A stretch of 61,670 nt of DNA from an uncultured Merdimonas sp. (GCA_944383645.1 CALWQJ010000001.1:1-61670), one strand, 5' to 3'. Positions 121 through 57,472 are shown, counted from the first letter of the stretch. The notes: generated by a model not told the origin, from the letters alone. Translations and numbers: made by a program.

Positions 121-1680
121 TCATTTGCAATGCCGTCTCTCCTCCAGCCTCTTCGCCACGCTGGGGAACCGGTTCAGATCCGTATGGGGAATCGCCGTCG
201 CAGCCACCATCAGGTGCAGGAAATCCTCCACCGCGCCAAACTGCACATACTGCATCCGGCTGATGATGTCCCTGGCTTTCTCCATCAGCGTCCGGTCAAA
301 GAGCAGCCTTTCTGCTCCTTTCAGCGAGGTATTTCCCGGGGAAATGATTTTTTCCCGGTCCATGTCCGGATAAAGGCCGATGGTCACCGCCGCTTCCTTA
401 TCGATATGCGTCCCGAATGCGCCCGCCACATAGAAGCGGCCCACTTCCTCCAGCGTAAGACCGATGAGATTCATCATATATTCCACCATGGTCATGGCCG
501 CCGCCTTGGTCTTCAGAAATTCGTCCATATCTCCCTGGTAAAAATAGAGTCCCGGCGCGTATTCCACCGCCGCCTCCAGCTCGTCCTCTTCCCTTCCGGG
601 CAGATGGACGACTCCCGGCGCGTCCTCCTGGAAGCGCCCACGCAGATCGACCCAGCCGTTCAGGTACAGCTCCGCGATCAGATCGACGATTCCGGAGCCG
701 CAGATGCCTTTGGCCGCGCCGCCTCCGATGACGTGGGCCTTCAGCCTCCCGTTCTCCGTGGTGACCCGGTCCACGGCGCCTTCCTCCGCCCGCATGCCGG
801 TGTGGACCACGCCTCCCTCCAGGGCAGGGCCTGCCGCCCCGGCTCCTGCCAGCAGGAAATCCCGGTTTCCCACCACCAGCTCGCCGTTCGTCCCCACATC
901 CAGGAAGACGCAGATCTCCTCCTGATCCGGAATTCCCGTAGCCAGCATTCCGCTGATGATATCGCCGCCCAGATAGTTGGCCATGCCCGGACAGCAGTAC
1001 ACGAAGCCGTCCAGGGGAATTCCCAGCTCTTCACCCCTGCAGGGATCCGGCGCCAGCGTCTGCACCGCGTAGGGCGTCTGGAAGACGCCGAAGGCGTCGA
1101 GCCCCAGCAGAAAATGAAGCATCGCCGTATTTCCGGAGACTGTCAGCGCCGGACAGGAAAAGGCGTCGATTCCCGTTTTCTCCTTCAGCCCCTCCATCAG
1201 GCTGCGGAAGCCCTCTGCCGTGGCCTTCTGGAGCCGCTTCCTGCGCTCCGGCCGGTCCTTCGTGTAAAAGATGCGGCTTAAGATATCCTCTCCCCAGTTG
1301 ATCTGGGGATTGAAGACGCTTTCGGAGGCCAGAATTTCCCCCGTGTTCAGATCCGCCAGCTCCATCACGATCGTGGTGCTTCCCAAGTCCGCGCAGAGGC
1401 CGTAATGCGCTCCAGACGTGTCTCCCGGCTCCAGGCGCAGAAGCTCCCAGCCGCAGCCGTCGAAGCACAGCACAGCCGTCACCCTCCAGCCGCCCGCCTC
1501 GCAGATCCCCTGGGCCTCCTGAAGGGACTTCGGCCGCATCCGGATATAAGCCGCCCTTTCCAGCCGGAAAGGACCACTGTCCTCCAGGGCGGCAAAAAGC
1601 CGCTCCTGCAAGGGACGGTGGTCCTCCTCTGAAGGCACGGGAAGCTCAAGATAAACCTTTCTGCTCCATCCTTCCATCAT
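121..1680 (-). CDS. ASKHA-domain corrinoid reductive activase homolog (RACo/DUF4445 type) lacking the N-terminal [2Fe-2S] domain
   Basis: Motifs DLGSTT, GEDILSRI, GNTAMLH, LDVGTNGE, AAGPALEG, GICGSG, AGAFG, GNTSLKGA; C-terminal AIPHTDL; no CxxxxxCxxC at the N-terminus. Confidence 0.88.
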   Translation of the reverse strand: MMEGWSRKVYLELPVPSEEDHRPLQERLFAALEDSGPFRLERAAYIRMRPKSLQEAQGICEAGGWRVTAVLCFDGCGWELLRLEPGDTSGAHYGLCADLGSTTIVMELADLNTGEILASESVFNPQINWGEDILSRIFYTKDRPERRKRLQKATAEGFRSLMEGLKEKTGIDAFSCPALTVSGNTAMLHFLLGLDAFGVFQTPYAVQTLAPDPCRGEELGIPLDGFVYCCPGMANYLGGDIISGMLATGIPDQEEICVFLDVGTNGELVVGNRDFLLAGAGAAGPALEGGVVHTGMRAEEGAVDRVTTENGRLKAHVIGGGAAKGICGSGIVDLIAELYLNGWVDLRGRFQEDAPGVVHLPGREEDELEAAVEYAPGLYFYQGDMDEFLKTKAAAMTMVEYMMNLIGLTLEEVGRFYVAGAFGTHIDKEAAVTIGLYPDMDREKIISPGNTSLKGAERLLFDRTLMEKARDIISRMQYVQFGAVEDFLHLMVAATAIPHTDLNRFPSVAKRLEERRHCK

Positions 1681-4202: not shown

Positions 4203-5115
4203 CTCCTCGTTTTACGGGCTTTGAAAAATATTTTCTCTTCAGATAAGGCACTGCCAGGAACACTGCCACCACCAGGGCGGAAATCAGCTTCATATCGTTG
4301 GCGTTCAGTCCCGCCGTGATAACGACCTGGTACACTACCCAGTAAATAATCGCTCCCAGAACTACCGACGCCAGCTTAAACGCGAAATTCCGGCTGATTT
4401 TTCCAAAGATAACATTTCCGATGATGACCGCAGCCAGGCCGATGACGATAGCGCCGCGGCCCGCGTTCACATCCGCGAAGCCCTGATACTGGGCGTAAAG
4501 CGCGCTGGAAAGCGCCACAATGCCGTTGGAAAGCATCAGTCCCACCAGCTTGGTGGTGTTCGTGTTGATGCCCTGGGCCCTGGACATGTTCTCATTGTTT
4601 CCGGTAGCGCGGATGGCGCAGCCCAAATCTGTTCCGAAGAACCAGTAGAGCACCGCGATCAGCACCAGCACGAAAATCGCGGAGACGAAAATCGTGTTCT
4701 GGTAAAAAGGAACATCTCTGACCCAGCGCAGGGACACGATCTGATTGTACTTGCCAAAGGCAAGGGCCACATTCGCTTTCTGATCCATAATCCGCAGATT
4801 TACAGAGTAGAGCCCCAGCTGAGTCAGGATTCCGGCCAGAATTGCCGGGATTCCCATGGCTGTATGAAAAAGTCCCGTCACAAGACCTGCCGCCATGCCC
4901 GCCAGGAATGCCACAAACAGAGAAACGCCCACCGAATGGCCGCTCTGCATCATCATAATGCAGACCGCGCCGCCTGTAGCCATCGTCCCGTCTACAGTCA
5001 GATCCGCCAGATCCAGCACCTTATAGGTGATGTAGACGCCAATCGCCATGATTCCCCAGATCAGTCCCTGCGCGACAGGGCCCGGAAGGGCGTTGATAAA
5101 CTTCATGATTTCCAC
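4186..5115 (-). CDS. ABC transporter permease
   Basis: Polytopic hydrophobic protein with DLTVDG and IRATGNN motifs; lies between the SBP and ATPase genes. Confidence 0.92.
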   Translation of the reverse strand: MEIMKFINALPGPVAQGLIWGIMAIGVYITYKVLDLADLTVDGTMATGGAVCIMMMQSGHSVGVSLFVAFLAGMAAGLVTGLFHTAMGIPAILAGILTQLGLYSVNLRIMDQKANVALAFGKYNQIVSLRWVRDVPFYQNTIFVSAIFVLVLIAVLYWFFGTDLGCAIRATGNNENMSRAQGINTNTTKLVGLMLSNGIVALSSALYAQYQGFADVNAGRGAIVIGLAAVIIGNVIFGKISRNFAFKLASVVLGAIIYWVVYQVVITAGLNANDMKLISALVVAVFLAVPYLKRKYFSKPVKRGGASNA

Positions 5116-18636: not shown

Positions 18637-18709
18637 TGCTTCTATCACAACGCAGATAATTTTATCATGACCGTCAGTAAAATGCAAGCGTATTTTTCAA
18701 AATTTAAGT

Positions 18710-18756
18710 TACCCTCAATTGACAAGAGCACACACGGTCCTTGTCAATTGAGGGTA
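18710..18756. repeat. Perfect 17-bp inverted repeat
   Basis: TACCCTCAATTGACAAG-N13-CTTGTCAATTGAGGGTA. Confidence 0.8.
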
Positions 18757-18781
18757 TCATTTCTAAATCAGGACTGCAAAG

Positions 18782-18875
18782 CAGCCACCCCACCCACATA
18801 AGCAGTCTTAACTCCATAAGGAGCGGGACTGAAGCCTCGAAGAGGCGGCAAGTGCGCATGCGGGTAGGGTGGCTG
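18782..18875 (-). other. Multibranched stem-loop element (candidate structured RNA or MITE/REP-like)
   Basis: 18-bp outer stem fully paired with G-U wobbles on the minus strand; two inner hairpins. Confidence 0.5.
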
Positions 18876-18897
18876 TGAATAGTTAATAGATTTAAGC

Positions 18898-19533
18898 TTA
18901 GGAAGCCAGCTCTTTCGCCTTCTGGGCGGCAGATGCAGCGTCCTCTGTATAAGCGTCTGCTCCGATCTCATCTGCAAAAGCCTGGGTAATAGGCGCTCCA
19001 CCCACCATAACCTTGATATTAGACCGGAAATCTGAGCTGTTCAGCAGAGCGACTGTATCCTTTAAGGACGGCATGGTCGTGGTCAGAAGAGCAGAGCAGC
19101 AGATAATCTTCGTGTCCGGATTCGCCTGATAGGTCTCCACAAACTTCTCCTTCGGAACGTCTACGCCAAGGTCAATCACCTCAAAGCCGGTGGACTCCAT
19201 CATCATGGCTACCAGGTTCTTTCCAATATCGTGAAGGTCGCCTGCCACGGTTCCGATAATAACCTTTCCAAGAGCTCCCTGAGCTCCGGAAGCAAGATGG
19301 GGCTTGAGCACCTCCACGCCCTTCTTCATAGCCTTAGCCGCAATCAGCATCTCCGGTACGAAGATCTCGCCGTTCTTGAACTTCTCTCCTACCTCATCCA
19401 TAGCGCCAATCATGCCTTTGTTCAGAATCTCAGACGCGTCGCAGCCTGCGTCAAGCGCTTCCTGTACAGCAGCTCCGATGAGTTTTGATTTTCCCTTTAC
19501 TACCAGATCGTATACTTCCTGAATTCCTGCCAT
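18898..19533 (-). CDS. Corrinoid (cobalamin-binding) protein of a methyltransferase system
   Basis: B12 cap FVPEMLIAAKAM; DLHDIGKN (DxHxxG); SALLTTT; VMVGGAP. Confidence 0.95.
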   Translation of the reverse strand: MAGIQEVYDLVVKGKSKLIGAAVQEALDAGCDASEILNKGMIGAMDEVGEKFKNGEIFVPEMLIAAKAMKKGVEVLKPHLASGAQGALGKVIIGTVAGDLHDIGKNLVAMMMESTGFEVIDLGVDVPKEKFVETYQANPDTKIICCSALLTTTMPSLKDTVALLNSSDFRSNIKVMVGGAPITQAFADEIGADAYTEDAASAAQKAKELAS

Positions 19534-19632
19534 TTTCTTATTCCTCCTGAATTCCTTTTTCCATCATTTCATCCCCCGCCAGCCCGGCGGGGGGGCTTTT
19601 CTGTTATACCTTCTTCGCCGCTTCCGCACCGC

Positions 19633-20436
19633 TTACTTCTTCGGTCCGAAGATTCCTTCCCGGTAGGCGCCGATATATTCCATACAGTATTCATCCTCAC
19701 CCAGAAGCGCCTCTGTGGCATAAATAACGCCCATCAGATCCCGGTTGGTCGGATCAAGAATCGCGCTGTCCAGTCCAGCATTCATAGCCAGCACGGTGAA
19801 GCCCAGGTTGATCATCTTCCTGACCGGAAGGTTGAAAGAGATATTGCTGACAGCCGCCGTGATGTGGATATTCGGATACTGGCTGCGCACAGTGCTGATG
19901 ACCTCTGTATTGGTCTCAATTCCGTTCTCTGAAGTGCAGAGCATCTCCACCAGCGGATCGATGTGCATCCGGCTGGGCGCGATACCGTATTCTTTCGCTT
20001 TCGCCATGATCTTATCAAACACCTTCAGACGGTCTGCCGCGCATTTGGGAATGCCTGTATCGTCTGAAAGAAGGCAGATGACCTCCCATTTCGTATCCGC
20101 GATGGCAGGAAAGATCTTGTCAATCTTGTCTCCCTCACCGGAAACGGAGTTGATAAGTCCCGGTCTCTTACAGTACGGGAACACCTGCAGCAGCACGTCC
20201 GGACTGGGGCTGTCCACAGATATGGGAAGATCCGTCACCTCCTGGATACAGTCAATCATCCATTTCAGCGTCTCTACTTCCTCTGCCTCCGGCACAGACG
20301 CACAGCAGTCAATAAAAGTCGCGCCTGCTTCCGCCTGCATCTTCGCACGATTCTTGATAAAGTCCGCGTCCCGCTTTGCGATAGCCTCCGCTACCGCGGG
20401 AATGGAGCCGTTGATTTTTTCACCTATAATTATCAT
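19633..20436 (-). CDS. Methylcorrinoid:tetrahydrofolate methyltransferase (MT2, AcsE/pterin-binding family)
   Basis: IIGEKINGS, ISVDSP, INSV, IDPLV, SNISFNLP, GLDSAILDP. Confidence 0.93.
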   Translation of the reverse strand: MIIIGEKINGSIPAVAEAIAKRDADFIKNRAKMQAEAGATFIDCCASVPEAEEVETLKWMIDCIQEVTDLPISVDSPSPDVLLQVFPYCKRPGLINSVSGEGDKIDKIFPAIADTKWEVICLLSDDTGIPKCAADRLKVFDKIMAKAKEYGIAPSRMHIDPLVEMLCTSENGIETNTEVISTVRSQYPNIHITAAVSNISFNLPVRKMINLGFTVLAMNAGLDSAILDPTNRDLMGVIYATEALLGEDEYCMEYIGAYREGIFGPKK

Positions 20437-20477
20437 CGTCGTTTTCCTCCAGTTCTTCTGTCAGCCGCCTGCCGCCA

Positions 20478-21473
20478 TCAGAACATTTCTTTTGTCATTT
20501 TCTCGATTTCTTCGTCGATCGCCCCGTACACCTCCGGGAAGCTGGTGTAATTTAAGCCCTGGGTCTCGCAGGGGATAAAGTACAGCTTTCCGCAGTCCCG
20601 GCAAAGCTGATCGGTAGCTTCCGCAATCATCTCCTGGGTCCAGTCCGCCCGGTCTACCTTGCCGTTGTCGATACCGCCCATGAAAGTAATTTCTTTTCCG
20701 TATTCCTTTACCAGCTTCGGAAGGTCGTTCACAGACATGCAGCCCTGCCATACGTCGATGCCCATCTCGATCATGGACGGAACCAGGGTCGCGCTGAAGC
20801 TGTCATTGTGATGGACAACCAGCTGTACACCGTGATCATGATAGTAACCGTAAATCTTCTTATAAGATTCCAGATAAAACTCACGGAACATATCTACGCT
20901 GATAAAGGTAGACTTCTGGGTACCCCAGTCGTCATGATGGAAAATCACATCGGGCTTCATATATGTACAGATCTGCTCCGCCCATTTCAACTCCCAGTCT
21001 GTGATGTAATCAATCAGCTCATGCATCGCTTCGGGTTCTTCATAGAAATTCATCATGGTAGTCTGAATCTCGCAGAGGTAATGGCACATCTCAAAGACGC
21101 CCGGCGCCACAAAGGCCGCCACCAGATACTCGTTCCGGTCAACAGCCGCCACTGCTTCCTGGCAGGGCTTCCAGTCCTCCGCCGTATAATTGATATCCGG
21201 AGCCTTTACATACTTTCTCCATTCTGTGATATCCGGGCATACCAGATGCTCCGGATCATGCATCGGGAACGCTCCCGGCATGCCTTCCGGCCAGGCGTTC
21301 GTATAACCCCATGCACACTTTACCGCGGGAGCTCCCGGCCCCTCCGGCATCAGCGGGTACTGCAGGGCGTAGGGCGTATTCATCACAAACGCCAGCGCCT
21401 CGTACTGCTTCACAAAACGATCCGGATTTCCCCCTTTGATTACTTCCAGCATGTTCTGTTTTTTAGTTAACAT
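20478..21473 (-). CDS. Uroporphyrinogen-decarboxylase-fold methyltransferase I (probable O-demethylase MT1)
   Basis: Start ATG 21473 (RBS GGAGGT); HHDDWG, HHNDS, IDVWQG, FMGGID, IPC; operonic with MT2 and the corrinoid protein. Confidence 0.85.
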   Translation of the reverse strand: MLTKKQNMLEVIKGGNPDRFVKQYEALAFVMNTPYALQYPLMPEGPGAPAVKCAWGYTNAWPEGMPGAFPMHDPEHLVCPDITEWRKYVKAPDINYTAEDWKPCQEAVAAVDRNEYLVAAFVAPGVFEMCHYLCEIQTTMMNFYEEPEAMHELIDYITDWELKWAEQICTYMKPDVIFHHDDWGTQKSTFISVDMFREFYLESYKKIYGYYHDHGVQLVVHHNDSFSATLVPSMIEMGIDVWQGCMSVNDLPKLVKEYGKEITFMGGIDNGKVDRADWTQEMIAEATDQLCRDCGKLYFIPCETQGLNYTSFPEVYGAIDEEIEKMTKEMF

Positions 21474-21679
21474 AAGATACCTCCAATCCATTATTTCGCC
21501 GTAAAGCGCCATCTCCATTTTCTTCACGGCGTCCTCCCGCAAAACGGCTTAAAACCGCCTTGCAATTCCCTGATAATTTCATTATACTAGAAACAAGCCG
21601 GAAGACAATTCTTTATTATATGGGATTTGTCTGTTATCTTTCCTACAAAATATAGGAGAACGGAAAGGAGGAACTCACC

Positions 21680-23216
21680 CTGAATCTCAGCGCTAAACTC
21701 ATTGTATATCATCTGAGCCGGAAATTTCCGGTTCATGCCTCTTCTTCCTTAAGCATCGAGCCTGTGCTTTCCTGCTCCGTACCGTACCGGAAAGGAATGG
21801 CTTTTCAGGAGGGAAGAGTTTATGTAGTGTCTGATTCGGATTTCACAGTTCCTTCCCACCACCTGACGTCCATTCTTTTCGTCCTGTCCGGAAGCAGTTT
21901 TCCCCTTTCCGAGCAGGATTACCCGAACCTCTGCATCCTTCCGGAAGAGGCAGATGCAGCGGACGTCTTCGCAGAGCTTCAGGAAATTTTCCTGCTCTAC
22001 GACCGGTGGAACCAGTCTCTGATGAATTCCCGTCTTGAAAACGCCTCCATCCAGTCGCTTCTCGACCTGACAGACTGTGTGATTCCCAATCCCATGCTGC
22101 TGATCGGCATGGATTTTGCTATCATTGCGTCTAAAAAACTGAATATGTGGGATCTGGAGAAACCCGTGCTGGGCTCCAGTGAGAATACCAGGGATATTAT
22201 CACCAGTCTCAAGCAGGATCCCAATTATGAGCAGGCGTTTTATAAGACCGGATATTTCTATTATCCCGGCAACGAATATTCCGCCCCCTCCCTGTGCGTC
22301 AATATCGCAGGAGGCGGGCGGACGGCCTACCGCCTCCTGTTCACGGAAGGCGGCGTCCCTCTGGACGATACCTTTGGCTTCGTCCTGGAATACCTCGCCC
22401 AAATGGTGACCCATGCCTTTTCTACCCGGCTGATGCGCGGCCATACCTCCAGTTATTCCCTGCATGAGGTTTTCGCCACCCTGCTCACAGAGCCCAACTC
22501 CGACTATGTAAAGGTCAGCCAGCAGATCGCTGCCTGCGGCTGGCCCTCTTCCCATACCTATCTGTGCGTGCTGATTCGGACAGGGCTTATCGATCAGAAA
22601 AACCTGACCCTTCTTTCCATCTGCAATTACGTGGAGAACACCCTTCCCTGCAGCTGCGCCGTGGAATACAAGGGCAACGCCGTCGTCTATGTCAACCTGA
22701 CTCTAAACGGAACGTCGGTGGAGGAAATCGCGGGGAAAGCTTGAAGGCTTTATTCAAAGCAGTATGCTAAACGCAGGCTTCAGCCGGAAAATGCTCGGCC
22801 ATTTCAACTTCCGCAGGCAGTATGTCCAGGCATCTATGGCCCTGGAGACGGGCAAACGCAAAAACCCGGCCCTCAGCATGCACCATTTCAATTCCATCGC
22901 CCTGGACTATATTCTGGATCAGGCGACAAAAAAGCTCCCCGCGTACATGATCTGCCACGAGAAGCTTCTTTCTCTCAAATATGCGGATGAGTCGAACCAC
23001 TCCCATCTCTACGAGACGCTCCGCTCTTTCCTGGAGCACCACCAGAATATCGCCCGGACCTCGGAGGCTTTGTACATTCACAGAAGCACCCTTCTCTACC
23101 GCATGGATAAAATCAGGGAGTTCCTGAACTCGGATCTCTCCGACCCTGCCGAGCTTTTGTACCTTATGCTTTCCTTCCACCTGATGGCTCTGGAAGAGAA
23201 TCAGCCAAGCAGGTAG
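21680..23216 (+). pseudogene. PucR/CdaR-family transcriptional regulator split by a 1-nt frameshift near 22732..22738
   Basis: C-terminal HTH YETLRSFLEHHQNIARTSEALYIHRSTLLYRM. Removing one base from GGGGAAA joins ORFs 21764..22744 and 22764..23216. In-frame CTG at 21680 follows RBS AAGGAGG. Confidence 0.75.
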
Positions 23217-23770
23217 CAGGAGGTATAGGCGATTTTTCCCGGCCCGTAATAATAGCCCATTTCATTGGCCTTACACAGATCGCTTACCACGATTCCGTAG
23301 GCCTCCATAGAAGAAATACGTTTTTCCGGAAAACGGCAGGGACCGTCCGGATAGGAGCAGGAGGCGCAGACAGTGCAGCAGCCTGCTCCCAGTGCCAGAA
23401 GCCCCGGATACTGCTCCCGCAGCAGGGCGGCCGCTTTCCGGAAGGTTTCTTTATGCTGTTTTTCCGTCTCCTGCATTCCTTCGTAATCCCAGCTGTCCTC
23501 CAGCTCTCCTATTGTCTGCACCAGGATGCCGAAGCGGTATCCCCGGACTTTCTCCCGGCATTCCTCCAGGCTTCCACAGGCAGGCGGACAGGACCAGTTC
23601 TTCCCATACATGCCGCAGGTATCCGCCGCGCACATCTTCCGCACCTCCTCCCGCAGCTCTATCGTACCGCAGTCCAAGAGGGCCGCTTCTGAAAAGCCGC
23701 AGGAAAGAACCAGTTCCTTTGCCTTGCCAAAATCCTTTTCTTCCTGCTCATTCCGGAAAAGCGAGTTCAT
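23201..23770 (-). CDS. DUF2284 Cys-rich predicted metal-binding protein
   Basis: C...CGMYGKNWSCPPACG, AGCCTVCASC, CRFP, SMEAYGI; RBS GGAGGTG inside the upstream gene (23-nt overlap). Confidence 0.88.
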   Translation of the reverse strand: MNSLFRNEQEEKDFGKAKELVLSCGFSEAALLDCGTIELREEVRKMCAADTCGMYGKNWSCPPACGSLEECREKVRGYRFGILVQTIGELEDSWDYEGMQETEKQHKETFRKAAALLREQYPGLLALGAGCCTVCASCSYPDGPCRFPEKRISSMEAYGIVVSDLCKANEMGYYYGPGKIAYTSCYLLG

Positions 23771-25928
23771 CTACGAACACCTCCTGAAATTCCTTCTTAA
23801 GGGCCAGTTCCACAAATTCTGTATCCGCCGCCAGCCGGCTGCTTTCCTCATACGCCTCCTGATTCAGGGCCGCCATGCGCGCCCCTTCTCCGGCAGCGTT
23901 GCCGATGGAGCAGATCCTGCCGTTCAGCTCTTCCGGAAACATGCCAATGGCGCAGGCGCTGGAAGGATTCATATAATTTCCAAACGCCCCGGCAAGCCAG
24001 ACCTTCCCGATCTGCCCCGGCGTGATTCCCCTCTGGGCGCAGAGCAGGCGGATCCCGGCGCAGATGGCCGCCTTGGCCAGCTGAAGCTCCCGGATGTCCT
24101 TCTGGTTCAGATATACGTTTTCCGTGAAATACCAGGGCTCCTCCATCCTGCCGCCCTCGTCGATCCTGCCAAGCCGCAGAAGGCAGGCCGCCGCGTCCAG
24201 AAGGCCGGATCCGCAGATTCCCCTGGCCTCCCCGCCGCCGATCACATGGTAAGAAAGCTTGTCCTTCTCGACCCATACCCGGTCGATGGCCCCCTCGCTT
24301 CCGCGCATGCCGCAGGTGATCTTCGCTCCCTCAAAGGCCGGCCCCGCCGCCGTGGAACAGGCCAGAAGGCCATCCCGGTTTCCCAGGACCATTTCTCCGT
24401 TCGTCCCGATATCCACCAGAAGCGTCACTTCCGCCTCTTCCGAAATACCCGAAGCCAGAATGCAGCCGACGGTATCTGCTCCCACGAAGCCCCCGATGTT
24501 CGCAAGCCACAGAACTTCCCCGTGAGGACAAGAGGAAAGGCCGCACTCCAGAGCCGGAAGCGTAAGCGCCTCCTTCACCTTCGGCTCGTAGGGGGCCGTC
24601 ACCAGGGTATCCACCGGAATCTCCAGAAAGAGGTGGTGCATACAGCTGTTGCCCACCATGGCAATCCTTACAATCTCCTCAGCCTTCCGCCCGCAGGACT
24701 GGGCCGCCTCGAAAAGAAGCCCGTCCACCGCTTCGCGGATACAGCTGCTCAGGGCAGAAGCCCCCTTTTCCATGGCATAGCTTCCGCGCATGACCACGTC
24801 CGCGCCGTACTGCCTCTGGGGATTCATCCGGCTTTTTACCGCCAGCTGCTCCCCGGTAAGCCCATCCATCAGATAGGCTACCACCGTGGTAGAGCCCACG
24901 TCCACCGCCGCCAGCAGAGGATGTTCCACCTCCCGGGGCAGCTTCCCGGGCGCCAGGGGCACCTCTCTTCTGTGGCCTGACGCGAGAATCTGCGCCCGCG
25001 TCCTTTTCTTTTTTCCCGTGTCAATACGCATGCCAGGCTCTGCCTTCGTCTGGCAGGCAAGGACGCTTTTGCCATTTACCGCCACCTGGCACTTCCCGCA
25101 TTTTCCCTGGCCGCCGCAGGGTGCGTCCGGCGTGATGCCGGCCGCGATCTCTGCCTCCAGGATCGTCTGTCCTTCTTTGGCGCAGTACCGGATGCCCTCG
25201 TTCACAAAGCGGATCTCAAACCTGCTTTCCTGCTCCTTCTGGTAGGTTTCATAGAGATCCGGCCTGCGCTCCCGGGTACGGCTTACCGACTGCTCCAGCC
25301 TCCACTTCTCAATCCTGGCGTGGTGGCCGGACAGAAGCACTTCAGGCACTCTCCTGCCGTGCCATTCCTCCGGCCGGCTGTACTGCGGGTATTCCAGAAG
25401 ACCGTCCTGGAAGCTCTCTGATTCCGCTGAGGTCTCGTTGCTTAAGACCCCCGGAACCATCCGGGAGATGGCGTCAATCATCACCATGGCCGGAAGCTCG
25501 CCGCCCGTCAGCACATAATCGCCGATGGACACGTAATCTGTCACAATCTCTTCCAGAACCCTCTCGTCCACGCCCTCATAATGGCCACAGAGAAAGATCA
25601 ACTCCTCCTCCTTCGCCAGCTCCTGGGCCATCGCCTGGGTGAACACTGCGCCCTGGGGCGTCACATAGATCGTCCGGACTCTGCGGCCGAGCTGTTCCGT
25701 CACCGCCTTCCAGGCCTGGTACACAGGCTCCGCCTGCATCACCATACCGGCCCCGCCGCCGTAGGGGTAGTCGTCCACCTTTCCATACCGATTTCCGGCA
25801 TAGTCCCGGATATTGACCGCCTCCAGTCCAATGGCTCCCTTTTCTATGGCCCTGCCTGTGATACTGGTCCCCAGGCCGTTCTGTATCATTTCCGGAAACA
25901 AAGTCAACACATGGTATCGATTCATCAC
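23748..25928 (-). CDS. trmD: Fusion protein: tRNA (guanine37-N1)-methyltransferase TrmD + [2Fe-2S]/ASKHA corrinoid reductive activase
   Basis: aa 1-230 TrmD (VDDYPYGGGAGM, LCGHYEGVDER, SIGDYVLTGGE, LEYPQYSRP, RRPDL); aa ~236-305 ferredoxin (CGGQGKCGKC...LACQ); then DVGSTT, GNSCMHH, VDIGTNGE, AAGPAFEG, GICGSG, AGAFG, GNAAGEGA; no stop between domains. Confidence 0.93.
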   Translation of the reverse strand: MMNRYHVLTLFPEMIQNGLGTSITGRAIEKGAIGLEAVNIRDYAGNRYGKVDDYPYGGGAGMVMQAEPVYQAWKAVTEQLGRRVRTIYVTPQGAVFTQAMAQELAKEEELIFLCGHYEGVDERVLEEIVTDYVSIGDYVLTGGELPAMVMIDAISRMVPGVLSNETSAESESFQDGLLEYPQYSRPEEWHGRRVPEVLLSGHHARIEKWRLEQSVSRTRERRPDLYETYQKEQESRFEIRFVNEGIRYCAKEGQTILEAEIAAGITPDAPCGGQGKCGKCQVAVNGKSVLACQTKAEPGMRIDTGKKKRTRAQILASGHRREVPLAPGKLPREVEHPLLAAVDVGSTTVVAYLMDGLTGEQLAVKSRMNPQRQYGADVVMRGSYAMEKGASALSSCIREAVDGLLFEAAQSCGRKAEEIVRIAMVGNSCMHHLFLEIPVDTLVTAPYEPKVKEALTLPALECGLSSCPHGEVLWLANIGGFVGADTVGCILASGISEEAEVTLLVDIGTNGEMVLGNRDGLLACSTAAGPAFEGAKITCGMRGSEGAIDRVWVEKDKLSYHVIGGGEARGICGSGLLDAAACLLRLGRIDEGGRMEEPWYFTENVYLNQKDIRELQLAKAAICAGIRLLCAQRGITPGQIGKVWLAGAFGNYMNPSSACAIGMFPEELNGRICSIGNAAGEGARMAALNQEAYEESSRLAADTEFVELALKKEFQEVFVDELAFPE

Positions 25929-26431
25929 AACAGTCCCTCCGGCACATGGACGCTCATCCGTCCATTTTCCAAATCTACTTCCAGGATGCAGGACGGTATC
26001 GCGGGAAGCAGAATTTCCTTCCCCTCGTCCGTCTCCACCACATAGACGTCATTAGCTCCCGTCTGCAGCACGTCTGTCAGCACGCCCAGACGCTTATCTG
26101 TATCGTCAAAGACCTCCAGGTCTATCAAATCTACGATAAAATTCTCATTTTCCCCAAGGGGAACCGCCTGATCCCTCTCAATCAAAAGATCCCGCCCCCG
26201 GTAACGCTCCACCTCATTAATATCCTGAAACTCCTTGAATTGCAGGATCACCTGGTTCTTGAAAAAACGCACCCCGGCAATCGTAAGGGGCAGATATTCC
26301 TTTTCCGTATCCAGAAACACTTTTTTCAGCTTCCGGAAGCGCTGCGGATCATCTGTCGTCGGAAATACCTTGACCTCCCCTTTCAGGCCATGTGTGGAAG
26401 AAATTACTCCTACCCTTAAATATGGTTCCAT
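25925..26431 (-). CDS. rimM: Ribosome maturation factor RimM
   Basis: VGVISSTHGLKGEVKV, TGANDVYVV; start ATG 26431. Confidence 0.96.
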   Translation of the reverse strand: MEPYLRVGVISSTHGLKGEVKVFPTTDDPQRFRKLKKVFLDTEKEYLPLTIAGVRFFKNQVILQFKEFQDINEVERYRGRDLLIERDQAVPLGENENFIVDLIDLEVFDDTDKRLGVLTDVLQTGANDVYVVETDEGKEILLPAIPSCILEVDLENGRMSVHVPEGLL

Positions 26432-26501
26432 ATCCTGCCCGTTTCCTTTCCTGATCATGAAAGACGGCGGGTGTCTCCACCCGCCGCCTGCTTAAGAGAT
26501 C

Positions 26502-55898: not shown

Positions 55899-56825
55899 CT
55901 ATTCTATGGTAAGTCCGGCCTTCTCCAAGATCTTCGGCACGTTCTTCTCCGCGCCGATGGCCATGATATGTACGCCGTCGCAGATTCCCTCGTCCTTGAT
56001 CTTCGCGATCATCTCCGCCGCCATCTCGATGCCAAGCTGGGTGGGAAGTCCTTTGACGCCCTTGGCCTTGCCCTCGGCTGCCGCAGCTGCCAGGCGGTCA
56101 ATCATATCCTGCGGCACCGCGATGCCCGGCACATTCTCATTCATGTATTTCGCCATGCCGGCGGCCTTCAGCGGGATGATTCCGGCCATGATATGCGTAT
56201 GGATATTTGCCTTGTCCACTTCATCCATGAACCGCTTCAGGCTCTCCATATCGAAGATGCCCTGGGTCTGGATATACTGCGCGCCTGCCTCCACCTTCTG
56301 GCGCAGCTTATTGATCTGCAGCGGAAGGGGATCGTAGACGGGCGTTACGACTGCTCCTTTATAGAAAGAGGGAGCGCCTCCCTCGATGGGATTGCCGCCG
56401 CAGTCCTTGTCTGTGGCTTCCATTGCCGTCAGCATATGCAGGATTCCCACGGAATCCAGATCATAGACCGGCTTGGACTGCTTGCAGTCTCCTACGGTCG
56501 GATGATCTCCGGTCAGCGCCAGCATCGTATCGATGCCAAAGGCTGCCGCAGAAAGCATGTCGCCCAGAATTCCCATACGGCTCCTGTCACGGCCCGTCAC
56601 CTGGATAATCGGGTCCAGCCCTGCCTGCTTCAGCTTAATGCACAGCCCCAGGGAAGAGGCCTTCAGGCACGCGGACTGCATATCTGTCACATTGACGCCG
56701 TGCACCTTTCCCTTCAGAAGCTCGGCCGCCTCCATCTGCTCGGTAAAATCATATCCCTTGGGAGGGGCCATCTCAACGGTTACACCAAATTTTCCGCCTT
56801 CCAGCGCTTTTTCCAACATGCCCAT
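55899..56825 (-). CDS. metF: Methylenetetrahydrofolate reductase MetF
   Basis: EMAPPKG, NVTD, TGRDR, LALTGD, KVEAGAQYIQTQ, GVHIM. Confidence 0.93.
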   Translation of the reverse strand: MGMLEKALEGGKFGVTVEMAPPKGYDFTEQMEAAELLKGKVHGVNVTDMQSACLKASSLGLCIKLKQAGLDPIIQVTGRDRSRMGILGDMLSAAAFGIDTMLALTGDHPTVGDCKQSKPVYDLDSVGILHMLTAMEATDKDCGGNPIEGGAPSFYKGAVVTPVYDPLPLQINKLRQKVEAGAQYIQTQGIFDMESLKRFMDEVDKANIHTHIMAGIIPLKAAGMAKYMNENVPGIAVPQDMIDRLAAAAAEGKAKGVKGLPTQLGIEMAAEMIAKIKDEGICDGVHIMAIGAEKNVPKILEKAGLTIE

Positions 56826-57472
56826 TACTTGTTCCCCCTGATATTAATTGTTCTGGGATATGCCACCTTCTCATATCCTTTGTCCGCTCTTCTCTTCGCC
56901 AGCTTGTCCAGCTGTCCCAGAGCCTCCAGACGCCTGTAAATCATAATCCACGCACAGTCGTTCTCCGGATTGACCTCGCACTTCCCATTCTTCTGGCCGC
57001 CGCAGGGACCGTTCACCAGAGACTTGGCGCAGCGGGAGATGGGGCAGATGCCGCCGGTGCTTCCCAGCATACAGTCGCCGCACAGATGACAGGCCTCCTC
57101 AAAAAGTCCAAAACGCACCGCCTCGCCCAGGAACATGGTATTGTTAGACGGGTATACCGGGACCTGGCTGTGGTTCGCTGCCACCTGGACGCCGTCTCCA
57201 CAGGACATACAGACAACCGCGTCGGGGCCCGCCGCCGTCAGCTTCTTCATCGCCGTCTTGACTCCCATATTCATGCAGCAGTAATCTGCCATCCCGGTAG
57301 CTACCACGGTCTTGCCCTGGGATTCCAGATACGCCTTCAGCTCCGCAACCTCCTTCTCGCCGCCGGTAGCACAGGCCGTAGCACAGCTGCCGCAGCCCAG
57401 GATCGCGATCTTCTGCGCGTCGCCGATCATTGCCATCAGTTCTTCGATGGGCTTTTTCTGTGTGATAATCAT
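56825..57472 (-). CDS. metV: MTHFR small Fe-S/Zn subunit MetV
   Basis: GCGSCATAC, CHLCGDC, CPISRCAKSLVNGPCGG, CEV...CAW; overlaps the metF start. Confidence 0.92.
   Translation of the reverse strand: MIITQKKPIEELMAMIGDAQKIAILGCGSCATACATGGEKEVAELKAYLESQGKTVVATGMADYCCMNMGVKTAMKKLTAAGPDAVVCMSCGDGVQVAANHSQVPVYPSNNTMFLGEAVRFGLFEEACHLCGDCMLGSTGGICPISRCAKSLVNGPCGGQKNGKCEVNPENDCAWIMIYRRLEALGQLDKLAKRRADKGYEKVAYPRTINIRGNK

Follow-up and report, generated by a model that had tools for sequence, protein, structure and literature searches.

TrmD is the S-adenosylmethionine (SAM)-dependent enzyme which makes 1-methylguanosine at position 37 of tRNA (m1G37), and activases of the RACE type are proteins which move electrons, not methyl groups. 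According to the accessible part of one account TrmD is an antiparallel dimer (PMC11187310), and a natural C-terminal fusion of TrmD has been published, TrmD-Tm1570 (PF01746-PF09936), which the available excerpts report as a homodimer whose domains hardly interact within the chain (PMC11187310, PMC1829167). Corrinoid activators have been described as monomeric in the available portion of one source (PMC6739815), RACE-type ATPases as using a [2Fe-2S] cluster and ATP to bring a Co(II) corrinoid to Co(I) in the accessible text of another (PMC7317905), and Ser398 of RACo as a cobalt-ligating residue in that of a third (PMC4934906). In a 61,670-nucleotide stretch of DNA from an uncultured Merdimonas sp. 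(GCA_944383645.1 CALWQJ010000001.1:1-61670), hereafter the window, these two kinds of enzyme are joined in one protein, a complete TrmD being followed by a predicted corrinoid reductive activase. The favoured reading, given a probability of roughly 70%, is that the fusion arose through the capture of a corrinoid methyltransferase cassette behind trmD and that its halves work independently.

Like TrmD-Tm1570, the protein is a C-terminal TrmD fusion, with a redox ATPase as partner instead of a second SPOUT domain. It resembles known TrmD proteins (TIGR00088, NF000648, PF01746; PDB 3KY7, 9SDV) in its full-length match, genomic position, single copy and motifs, and differs from them in bearing an extra 491-aa C-terminal metallo-ATPase. 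With RACo (3ZYY, 4C1N) and the AE protein of Acetobacterium dehalogenans it shares, as far as the accessible texts describe them (PMC7317905, PMC6739815), an N-terminal [2Fe-2S] domain and an ASKHA core, and all of them adjoin corrinoid and methyltransferase genes. Unlike those activases, the fusion has no linker domain, carries Ala for Ser398 and is joined to TrmD; its neighbour is an MtaC/MtgC-like corrinoid protein and not CoFeSP, as for RACo. The initial annotation knew of no described TrmD-activase fusion, and our search of the open literature likewise found none, though supplementary architecture tables or further papers outside that search could list it. No paper was found there on a corrinoid reductive activator paired with the predicted metal-binding protein DUF2284, nor on the corrinoid biology of Merdisoma.

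One open frame for TrmD and an activase

Translation of the window shows that the frame 23748-25928 on the minus strand is open throughout, and the fusion of TrmD to an activase in this single frame is confirmed as genuine. The uninterrupted 726-aa frame with a full TrmD that had been annotated initially is therefore borne out, with the amendment that translation likely starts at the ATG at 25925, which overlaps the rimM stop (TGATG) and matches the record P0130, giving 725 aa; residues are numbered in this form, except in quoted Pfam ranges. The TrmD half passes the equivalog cut-offs of NF000648 (318.7 against 220 bits) and TIGR00088 (310.3 against 195 bits), aligns with PDB 9SDV and 3KY7 with its motifs intact, and is the only trmD of the genome, at the canonical rimM-trmD-rplS position. 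The GC content at third codon positions is equal across the halves (0.75 and 0.74). An AlphaFold model of the full-length fusion had a predicted template modelling score of 0.65, with a predicted local distance difference test score (pLDDT) below 50 in the TrmD part owing to a shallow alignment, and was uninformative on domain packing.

On the fusion protein, Pfam places Fer2_4 at 238-304, RACo_middle at 341-497 and RACo_C_ter at 500-726, the matches to PF17651 and PF14574 constituting a RACo-type ASKHA core, and finds neither RACo_linker (PF17650) nor a Fer4 domain. The four cysteine ligands of the [2Fe-2S] domain are invariant in 97 sequences. A model of the activase alone (pLDDT 92.7) has its best fold match in RACo 3ZYY/4C1N (E 4e-43, far above other ASKHA folds), with a root-mean-square deviation of ~3 Å over the core and 35% identity to 4C1N. 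The scores fall below the cut-offs for AcsV (NF040756, 298 of 800 bits) and for RamA (TIGR04270, 139 of 500 bits), the latter a protein with [4Fe-4S] clusters at its C-terminus. Domain content and modelled fold thus support a RACE/RACo-type corrinoid reductive activase which by cut-off is neither AcsV nor RamA. The identity originally proposed is upheld, as are its ferredoxin and ASKHA domains, with the correction that the activase is a compact form devoid of the RACo linker. In the column of RACo Ser398 the fusion has Ala526, and so do 115 of 115 close free homologues; a dead activase, suggested by this substitution, was rejected, Ala being a subfamily trait. Attention is thereby drawn to a subfamily of activases, as yet uncharacterised, which lack the linker and have DUF2284 as a partner. 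Elsewhere, RACo-type activases are fused to DUF1638, DUF2284 and PilZ (P0299, P0328, P0324, P0414).

Two more RACo paralogues are encoded in the genome, one complete (C75, 642 aa) and one at 121-1680 (-) of the window without Fer2, so that the fusion is not the cell's only activase; three further corrinoid proteins are also present. The paralogue at 121-1680 has linker, middle and C-terminal domains and no [2Fe-2S] domain, and directly ahead of it lies what we take, from its sequence, to be an ilvC-like gene.

The reality of the junction was assessed on assembled contigs, not raw reads. The junction, which the initial annotation had singled out for checking (25200..25260), is crossed without a gap by contigs of X2, X4 and X13. 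These come from three studies, none of them that of X1, the possible source of the window; the X13 contig shows no difference and that of X4 three, all amino-acid changes known from other alleles. Contigs of the RNA libraries X15 and X16 (one study) also cross the junction, which alone is no proof of transcription; such contigs carry no information on expression level, strand or transcript ends, and depth was unused. Thirty full-length fused sequences were collected, and the isolate Lachnoclostridium sp. An131 (L103) has an open 725-aa frame of the same architecture, found in a genome-contig search that covered 34 of 64 parts and kept 80 of 566 loci. An assembly or sequencing artefact might be suspected from the metagenome-type assembly behind the window and from the separate 427-aa 'ASKHA domain-containing protein' named by NCBI for An131. 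The sequence of this protein is contained, residue for residue, in the 725-aa frame of the isolate, and with the independent contigs and the full-length sequences the artefact reading was rejected as next to impossible. Since the public name refers to just this 427-aa fragment, which lacks the Fe-S domain, architecture searches may miss the fusion.

It might also be supposed that internal initiation or cleavage at the junction frees the activase in vivo, leaving the fusion mostly nominal. The codon at 25221-25223, at the start position of free activases, is ATG in the genomes G002 and G041, preceded by a Shine-Dalgarno-like run that is weak in G002 (-4.3 kcal/mol) and moderate in G041 (Met235, -7.3 kcal/mol). 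The latter value is not rare within the frame (10th percentile -7.6 to -8.8), the codon is AGG in G004 and in the window's species (G000), and TrmD, its part having no stop, always bears the tail unless cleaved. Two separate proteins are accordingly considered very improbable, and the 1:1 co-production of activase and TrmD originally put forward is supported in the window's species, where the activase's old Met is now AGG.

Distribution and origin of the fusion

The fusion belongs to a few gut Lachnospiraceae and is present in 4 of 29 genomes of the genus (G000, G002, G004 and G041), a count to which L102 and L103 were not added. Four further 90% clusters, with identities of 84-96%, have the same architecture. 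A junction-spanning query found no fusion in 400 family genomes, about one per genus, at E up to 1e-34, a threshold below which distant fusions might score. No protein with both halves was among the best 150 of a 50%-cluster search; known fusions are absent from that list too, making it weak evidence against distant ones. Bare TrmD proteins of the same cluster carry the names Ca. Merdisoma species and Lachnoclostridium sp. An138, which makes Merdisoma the probable genus, and several best-matching runs are labelled chicken gut metagenome.

Among the 30 full-length fused sequences, all four TrmD motifs and both Fe-S motifs are intact throughout, as are seven of eight ASKHA motifs, the eighth being intact in 28 (the TrmD motif patterns were checked against the PDB alignment). 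In four fused pairs, the ratio of non-synonymous to synonymous substitution rates (dN/dS) was 0.03-0.07 in TrmD; within the activase it was 0.03-0.17 in Fer2, 0.04-0.14 in the middle domain and 0.05-0.11 in the C-terminal one. The synonymous rate (dS) is 0.13-0.18 for G000-G004 and reaches 0.9-3.0 for the other pairs, from which it follows that the fusion is old and the saturated ratios rough. These ratios indicate purifying selection on both halves, and both look functional.

The closest free activases (57-68% identity, ~495 aa) begin where the Fer2 domain of the fusion begins. They adjoin DUF2284 and corrinoid or MeTr-type methyltransferase genes in G012, G021, G022 and G016; in G044 the neighbours are DUF2284 and a fragment of a corrinoid gene. 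Two sequences are similar to the linker KEQES, namely KEQGEQKM, which leads in frame into the free activase of G023, and YQKEQ, the linker in relatives whose TrmD is joined to a HAD domain. It may be speculated that the fusion formed through such similarity. In a tree of rpoB, ileS and gyrB from 11 genomes (rpoB missing for G011 and G016, gyrB for G044), three genomes with bare TrmD (G011, G018 and G044) are nested within the fused group, and a fused-only clade was rejected by an approximately unbiased (AU) test (p=0.002 at 5,000 replicates, 10,000 being recommended). Either losses or recombination could explain this nesting. In G018, which is 97% complete, trmD adjoins rplS, and no close activase, DUF2284 or MT1-type methyltransferase was found.

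The C-terminus of TrmD as an attachment site

When trmD was read to its stop in 27 of the 29 genus genomes (G016 gave no match and G022 was not included), it was followed by RACo in four, by HAD with its DxD motif in four, by a shortened HAD-derived tail without DxD in 15, and by no tail in four. In the family, 140 genomes with a completeness of 90% or more yielded 15 long trmD frames, 13 of them with tails of 129-277 aa (GNAT 4, 4Fe-4S 1, ThiF 1, HD 1, no Pfam match 6). By Pfam, the best 120 TrmD clusters above 405 aa comprise GNAT (84), HAD (15), TrmD only (7), RimM-TrmD (5), RACo (4), QueA (2), SBP (1), GT28 (1) and 4Fe-4S (1); HisI and HD tails were also found in the Pfam scan. Seven of 78 further loci have tails of 242-269 aa, and the five scanned are all GNAT. 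In the PDB alignment, 8B1N is a TrmD chain of 436 aa. From these counts, the TrmD C-terminus appears to be a promiscuous docking site for unrelated enzymes, and the activase, an Fe-S ATPase of 53 kDa, extends the range of passengers it tolerates. The activase shares with the TrmD-GNAT and TrmD-HAD proteins of Lachnospiraceae the attachment point just past RPDLY, a passenger enzyme unrelated to TrmD and restriction to a lineage, whereas it is larger, has an Fe-S cluster and arrived with a multi-gene cassette.

This diversity bears on whether the halves are coupled, the activase regulating or feeding TrmD so that corrinoid redox state or methyl supply (methyl-THF, methionine, SAM; THF, tetrahydrofolate) is tied to m1G37. 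The covalent join and its persistence are all that speak for such coupling, besides the broad contact of both halves with one-carbon metabolism. Against it stand the differing chemistries, SAM for TrmD and electron transfer for the activase (the latter as given in the accessible text of PMC7317905), the many unrelated passengers at the same site, sister species with a bare TrmD 86-89% identical, and a TrmD which is unchanged in an allele without the cassette, described below. In unfused relatives, moreover, the companions of the activase are DUF2284 and corrinoid genes. The possibility raised initially, that methyl flux through corrinoids is physically tied to the methylation of tRNA, is thus not supported, and coupling is judged highly unlikely. 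No better chance is given to a selected coupling device on the TrmD dimer or to tRNA binding acting on the activase; dimerisation of the activase through TrmD is plausible. Coupling, if true, would be the first direct tie of B12 one-carbon chemistry to an essential tRNA modification, and only if the halves proved coupled would the finding matter much more.

Other tails deserve mention. The shortened HAD tails (L008, L011, L014-L025, L067; 15 genomes) have lost DxD and conserve a C-terminal YYRKIxD..EG-like motif; this remnant, predicted to be catalytically dead yet kept genus-wide, may have a structural role. TrmD is also fused to QueA (P0174, P0186), a ThiF-family domain (L223:391-1221) and HisI (P0347), and TrmD-QueA is a better candidate for functional pairing than TrmD-activase since QueA is itself a tRNA-anticodon enzyme. 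The tails of L218, L219, L220, L222 and L225 look by eye like one family of varied lengths, with a 4Fe-4S match only in L219, and are possibly another shrinking passenger.

The corrinoid cassette and its loss

Beyond the fusion lie, in order, DUF2284, a convergent pucR, a likely substrate-specific methyltransferase (MT1), a corrinoid:THF methyltransferase (MeTr), a corrinoid protein and rplS (Table 1). These genes make up a corrinoid methyltransferase cassette that has been inserted behind trmD and ahead of rplS, with the activase at its head. The corrinoid protein and methyltransferases adjoin the fusion in G000, G002 and G004, the set being reduced in G041, and DUF2284 adjacency recurs at free-activase loci, one protein (P0324) being a RACo fused to DUF2284. 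Among 14 starts scored, that of DUF2284 has the strongest ribosome-binding site (-14.1 kcal/mol). Ahead of MT1 and facing away from pucR is a promoter-like site (21608-21581), which is a 10/12 consensus match only, and for this reason the MT1, MeTr and corrinoid genes are suggested to form a separate regulated unit. No relevant direct repeats, as a sign of an integrative element, were found at the cassette ends, and no Rfam RNA, riboswitches included, matched in the window at gathering score.

Table 1. Features of the fusion locus, in window coordinates
Feature	Coordinates	Strand	Remarks
rimM	25925..26458	-	Upstream, within ylxM-ffh-rpsP-khpA-rimM-trmD run
trmD::RACo fusion frame	23748..25925	-	725 aa from ATG 25925; GTG 25928 gives 726 aa
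TrmD tRNA m1G37 methyltransferase, complete	25227..25925	-	NCBIfam/Pfam matches, PDB alignment, motifs
Junction QKEQES-R	25221..25241	-	Short purine-rich linker, predicted helical
[2Fe-2S] ferredoxin domain	25017..25217	-	Pfam; C270, C276, C279, C291 invariant
RACo middle and C-terminal ASKHA ATPase domains	23751..24908	-	Pfam and fold match; no RACo linker domain
DUF2284, predicted metal-binding protein	23201..23770	-	Pfam; ribosome-binding site and ATG inside last activase codons
PucR-family regulator	21764..23216	+	Split in window strain by extra base at 22736; one frame in G002, G004
URO-D/MtaA-CmuA-like methyltransferase, likely substrate-specific MT1	20478..21542	-	Below all NCBIfam cut-offs
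Pterin-binding corrinoid:THF methyltransferase, MeTr type	19633..20436	-	NF005719 339.9/259
Corrinoid (B12-binding) protein, likely activase substrate	18898..19533	-	Domain matches
Stretch absent from 727-aa allele (DUF2284, pucR, MT1, MeTr, corrinoid protein)	18700..23744	.	Contig joints; fusion left adjoining rplS leader

Under the reading of cassette capture, the TrmD half, as a dimer, would make m1G37 from SAM as usual, while the tethered activase would accept an electron at its [2Fe-2S] cluster and, with the help of ATP, reduce Co(II) to Co(I) in the neighbouring corrinoid protein. MT1 would methylate this protein from its substrate, and MeTr would demethylate it onto THF. The neighbouring corrinoid protein is the likely client of the activase, whose work would not depend on tRNA methylation. 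The fusion would place the activase and the coupled DUF2284 under the housekeeping rimM-trmD operon, with obligatory co-translation of activase and TrmD, and the MT1-MeTr-corrinoid genes would form a unit of their own that points away from the PucR-type regulator. Because the gene is essential, no upstream lesion could remove the passenger; a stop or deletion would have to fall beyond the TrmD core to do so, and the passenger could therefore outlast its cassette.

An allele of 727 aa, accounting for 7 of the 14 full-length members listed of a cluster of 76, appears to have done so. Contigs of X15 and X16 join 18699 to 23745, and one of the DNA run X4 joins 18699 to 23803; their differences from the window give L709H, K711E and V716I, and at these three positions they match the 727-aa allele. 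In this allele the DUF2284 ribosome-binding site is weakened and the DUF2284 ATG is impossible (Asp to Lys), as expected once the overlap is released. Outside the last 20 residues, the 727-aa and 725-aa groups have 26 and 13 private changes in the activase and 2 and 4 in TrmD, and the private activase changes fall at sites at least 70% conserved in 10 of 26 and 1 of 13 cases, respectively. Two 727-aa changes at conserved sites are near-fixed (V349A, 7/7; V450G, 6/7), and on a free-activase profile all seven 727-aa alleles score below all seven 725-aa alleles, TrmD scores being equal. Functional motifs remain intact. Such drift hints that what the activase does is bound up with the cassette. 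The cassette-less allele was not found in JGI metagenome scans and is known only from contigs and protein records. One genus seems to display a passenger's life cycle, in which HAD shrinks, a cassette-borne activase replaces it, the cassette is lost while the activase stays, and bare TrmD returns.

Several points weigh against cassette capture with independent halves. Fisher tests of the counts gave p=0.06 and 0.18, the two groups are only 0.3 bits apart at their nearest, and the cassette-type sequences P0004 and P0136 score lower still. The sequences showing drift are related and non-independent, singletons among them may be errors, and the link of allele to deletion consists of two contigs of one study and one partial DNA joint. 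The single-gene trees disagree, and the AU replicates fell short of the recommended number. The fusion has been kept across four species to synonymous saturation with no split seen and with the internal Met lost in two, a persistence in keeping with a degree of selection for the join. G041 keeps it with only DUF2284 and a divergent MeTr adjoining, its corrinoid genes lying on other contigs, so that the activase can outlive its own cassette or serve beyond it.

The join may accordingly have been selected, yielding a constitutive, growth-scaled and possibly stabilised or dimerised activase for all corrinoid proteins, with no tRNA chemistry involved. Its long retention under purifying selection, the Met lost in G000 and G004, the state of G041, the three further corrinoid proteins and the intact motifs of the cassette-less allele are all in keeping with such adaptive co-expression. 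This account is nonetheless held to be unlikely in view of the other complete RACo and the one without Fer2, the nested bare-TrmD species with no insert, and the near-fixed changes V349A and V450G. Tolerance and selection as explanations for essential-gene fusions could be told apart in the cultured Lachnoclostridium sp. An131.

Some minor observations concern the surroundings. The extra base at 22736 in pucR is present in X1 and X13 and absent from X2 and X4, a strain-level break which is possibly an early step of cassette decay. At 18755-18883 lies a hairpin repeat of ~130 bp, of which the genome has ~17 more long copies; its fold z-score is -8.7 and it has no Rfam match. A second repeat family adjoins it at 18710-18756 with a perfect inverted repeat of 17 bp, and both lie at the edge of the deleted stretch; the repeats at 18710-18883 appear to be like miniature inverted-repeat transposable elements or repetitive extragenic palindromes. 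A pair of genes for a MetF/MetV-type methylene-THF reductase at 55899-57472 (-) on the same contig offers a possible route for the cassette's methyl-THF.

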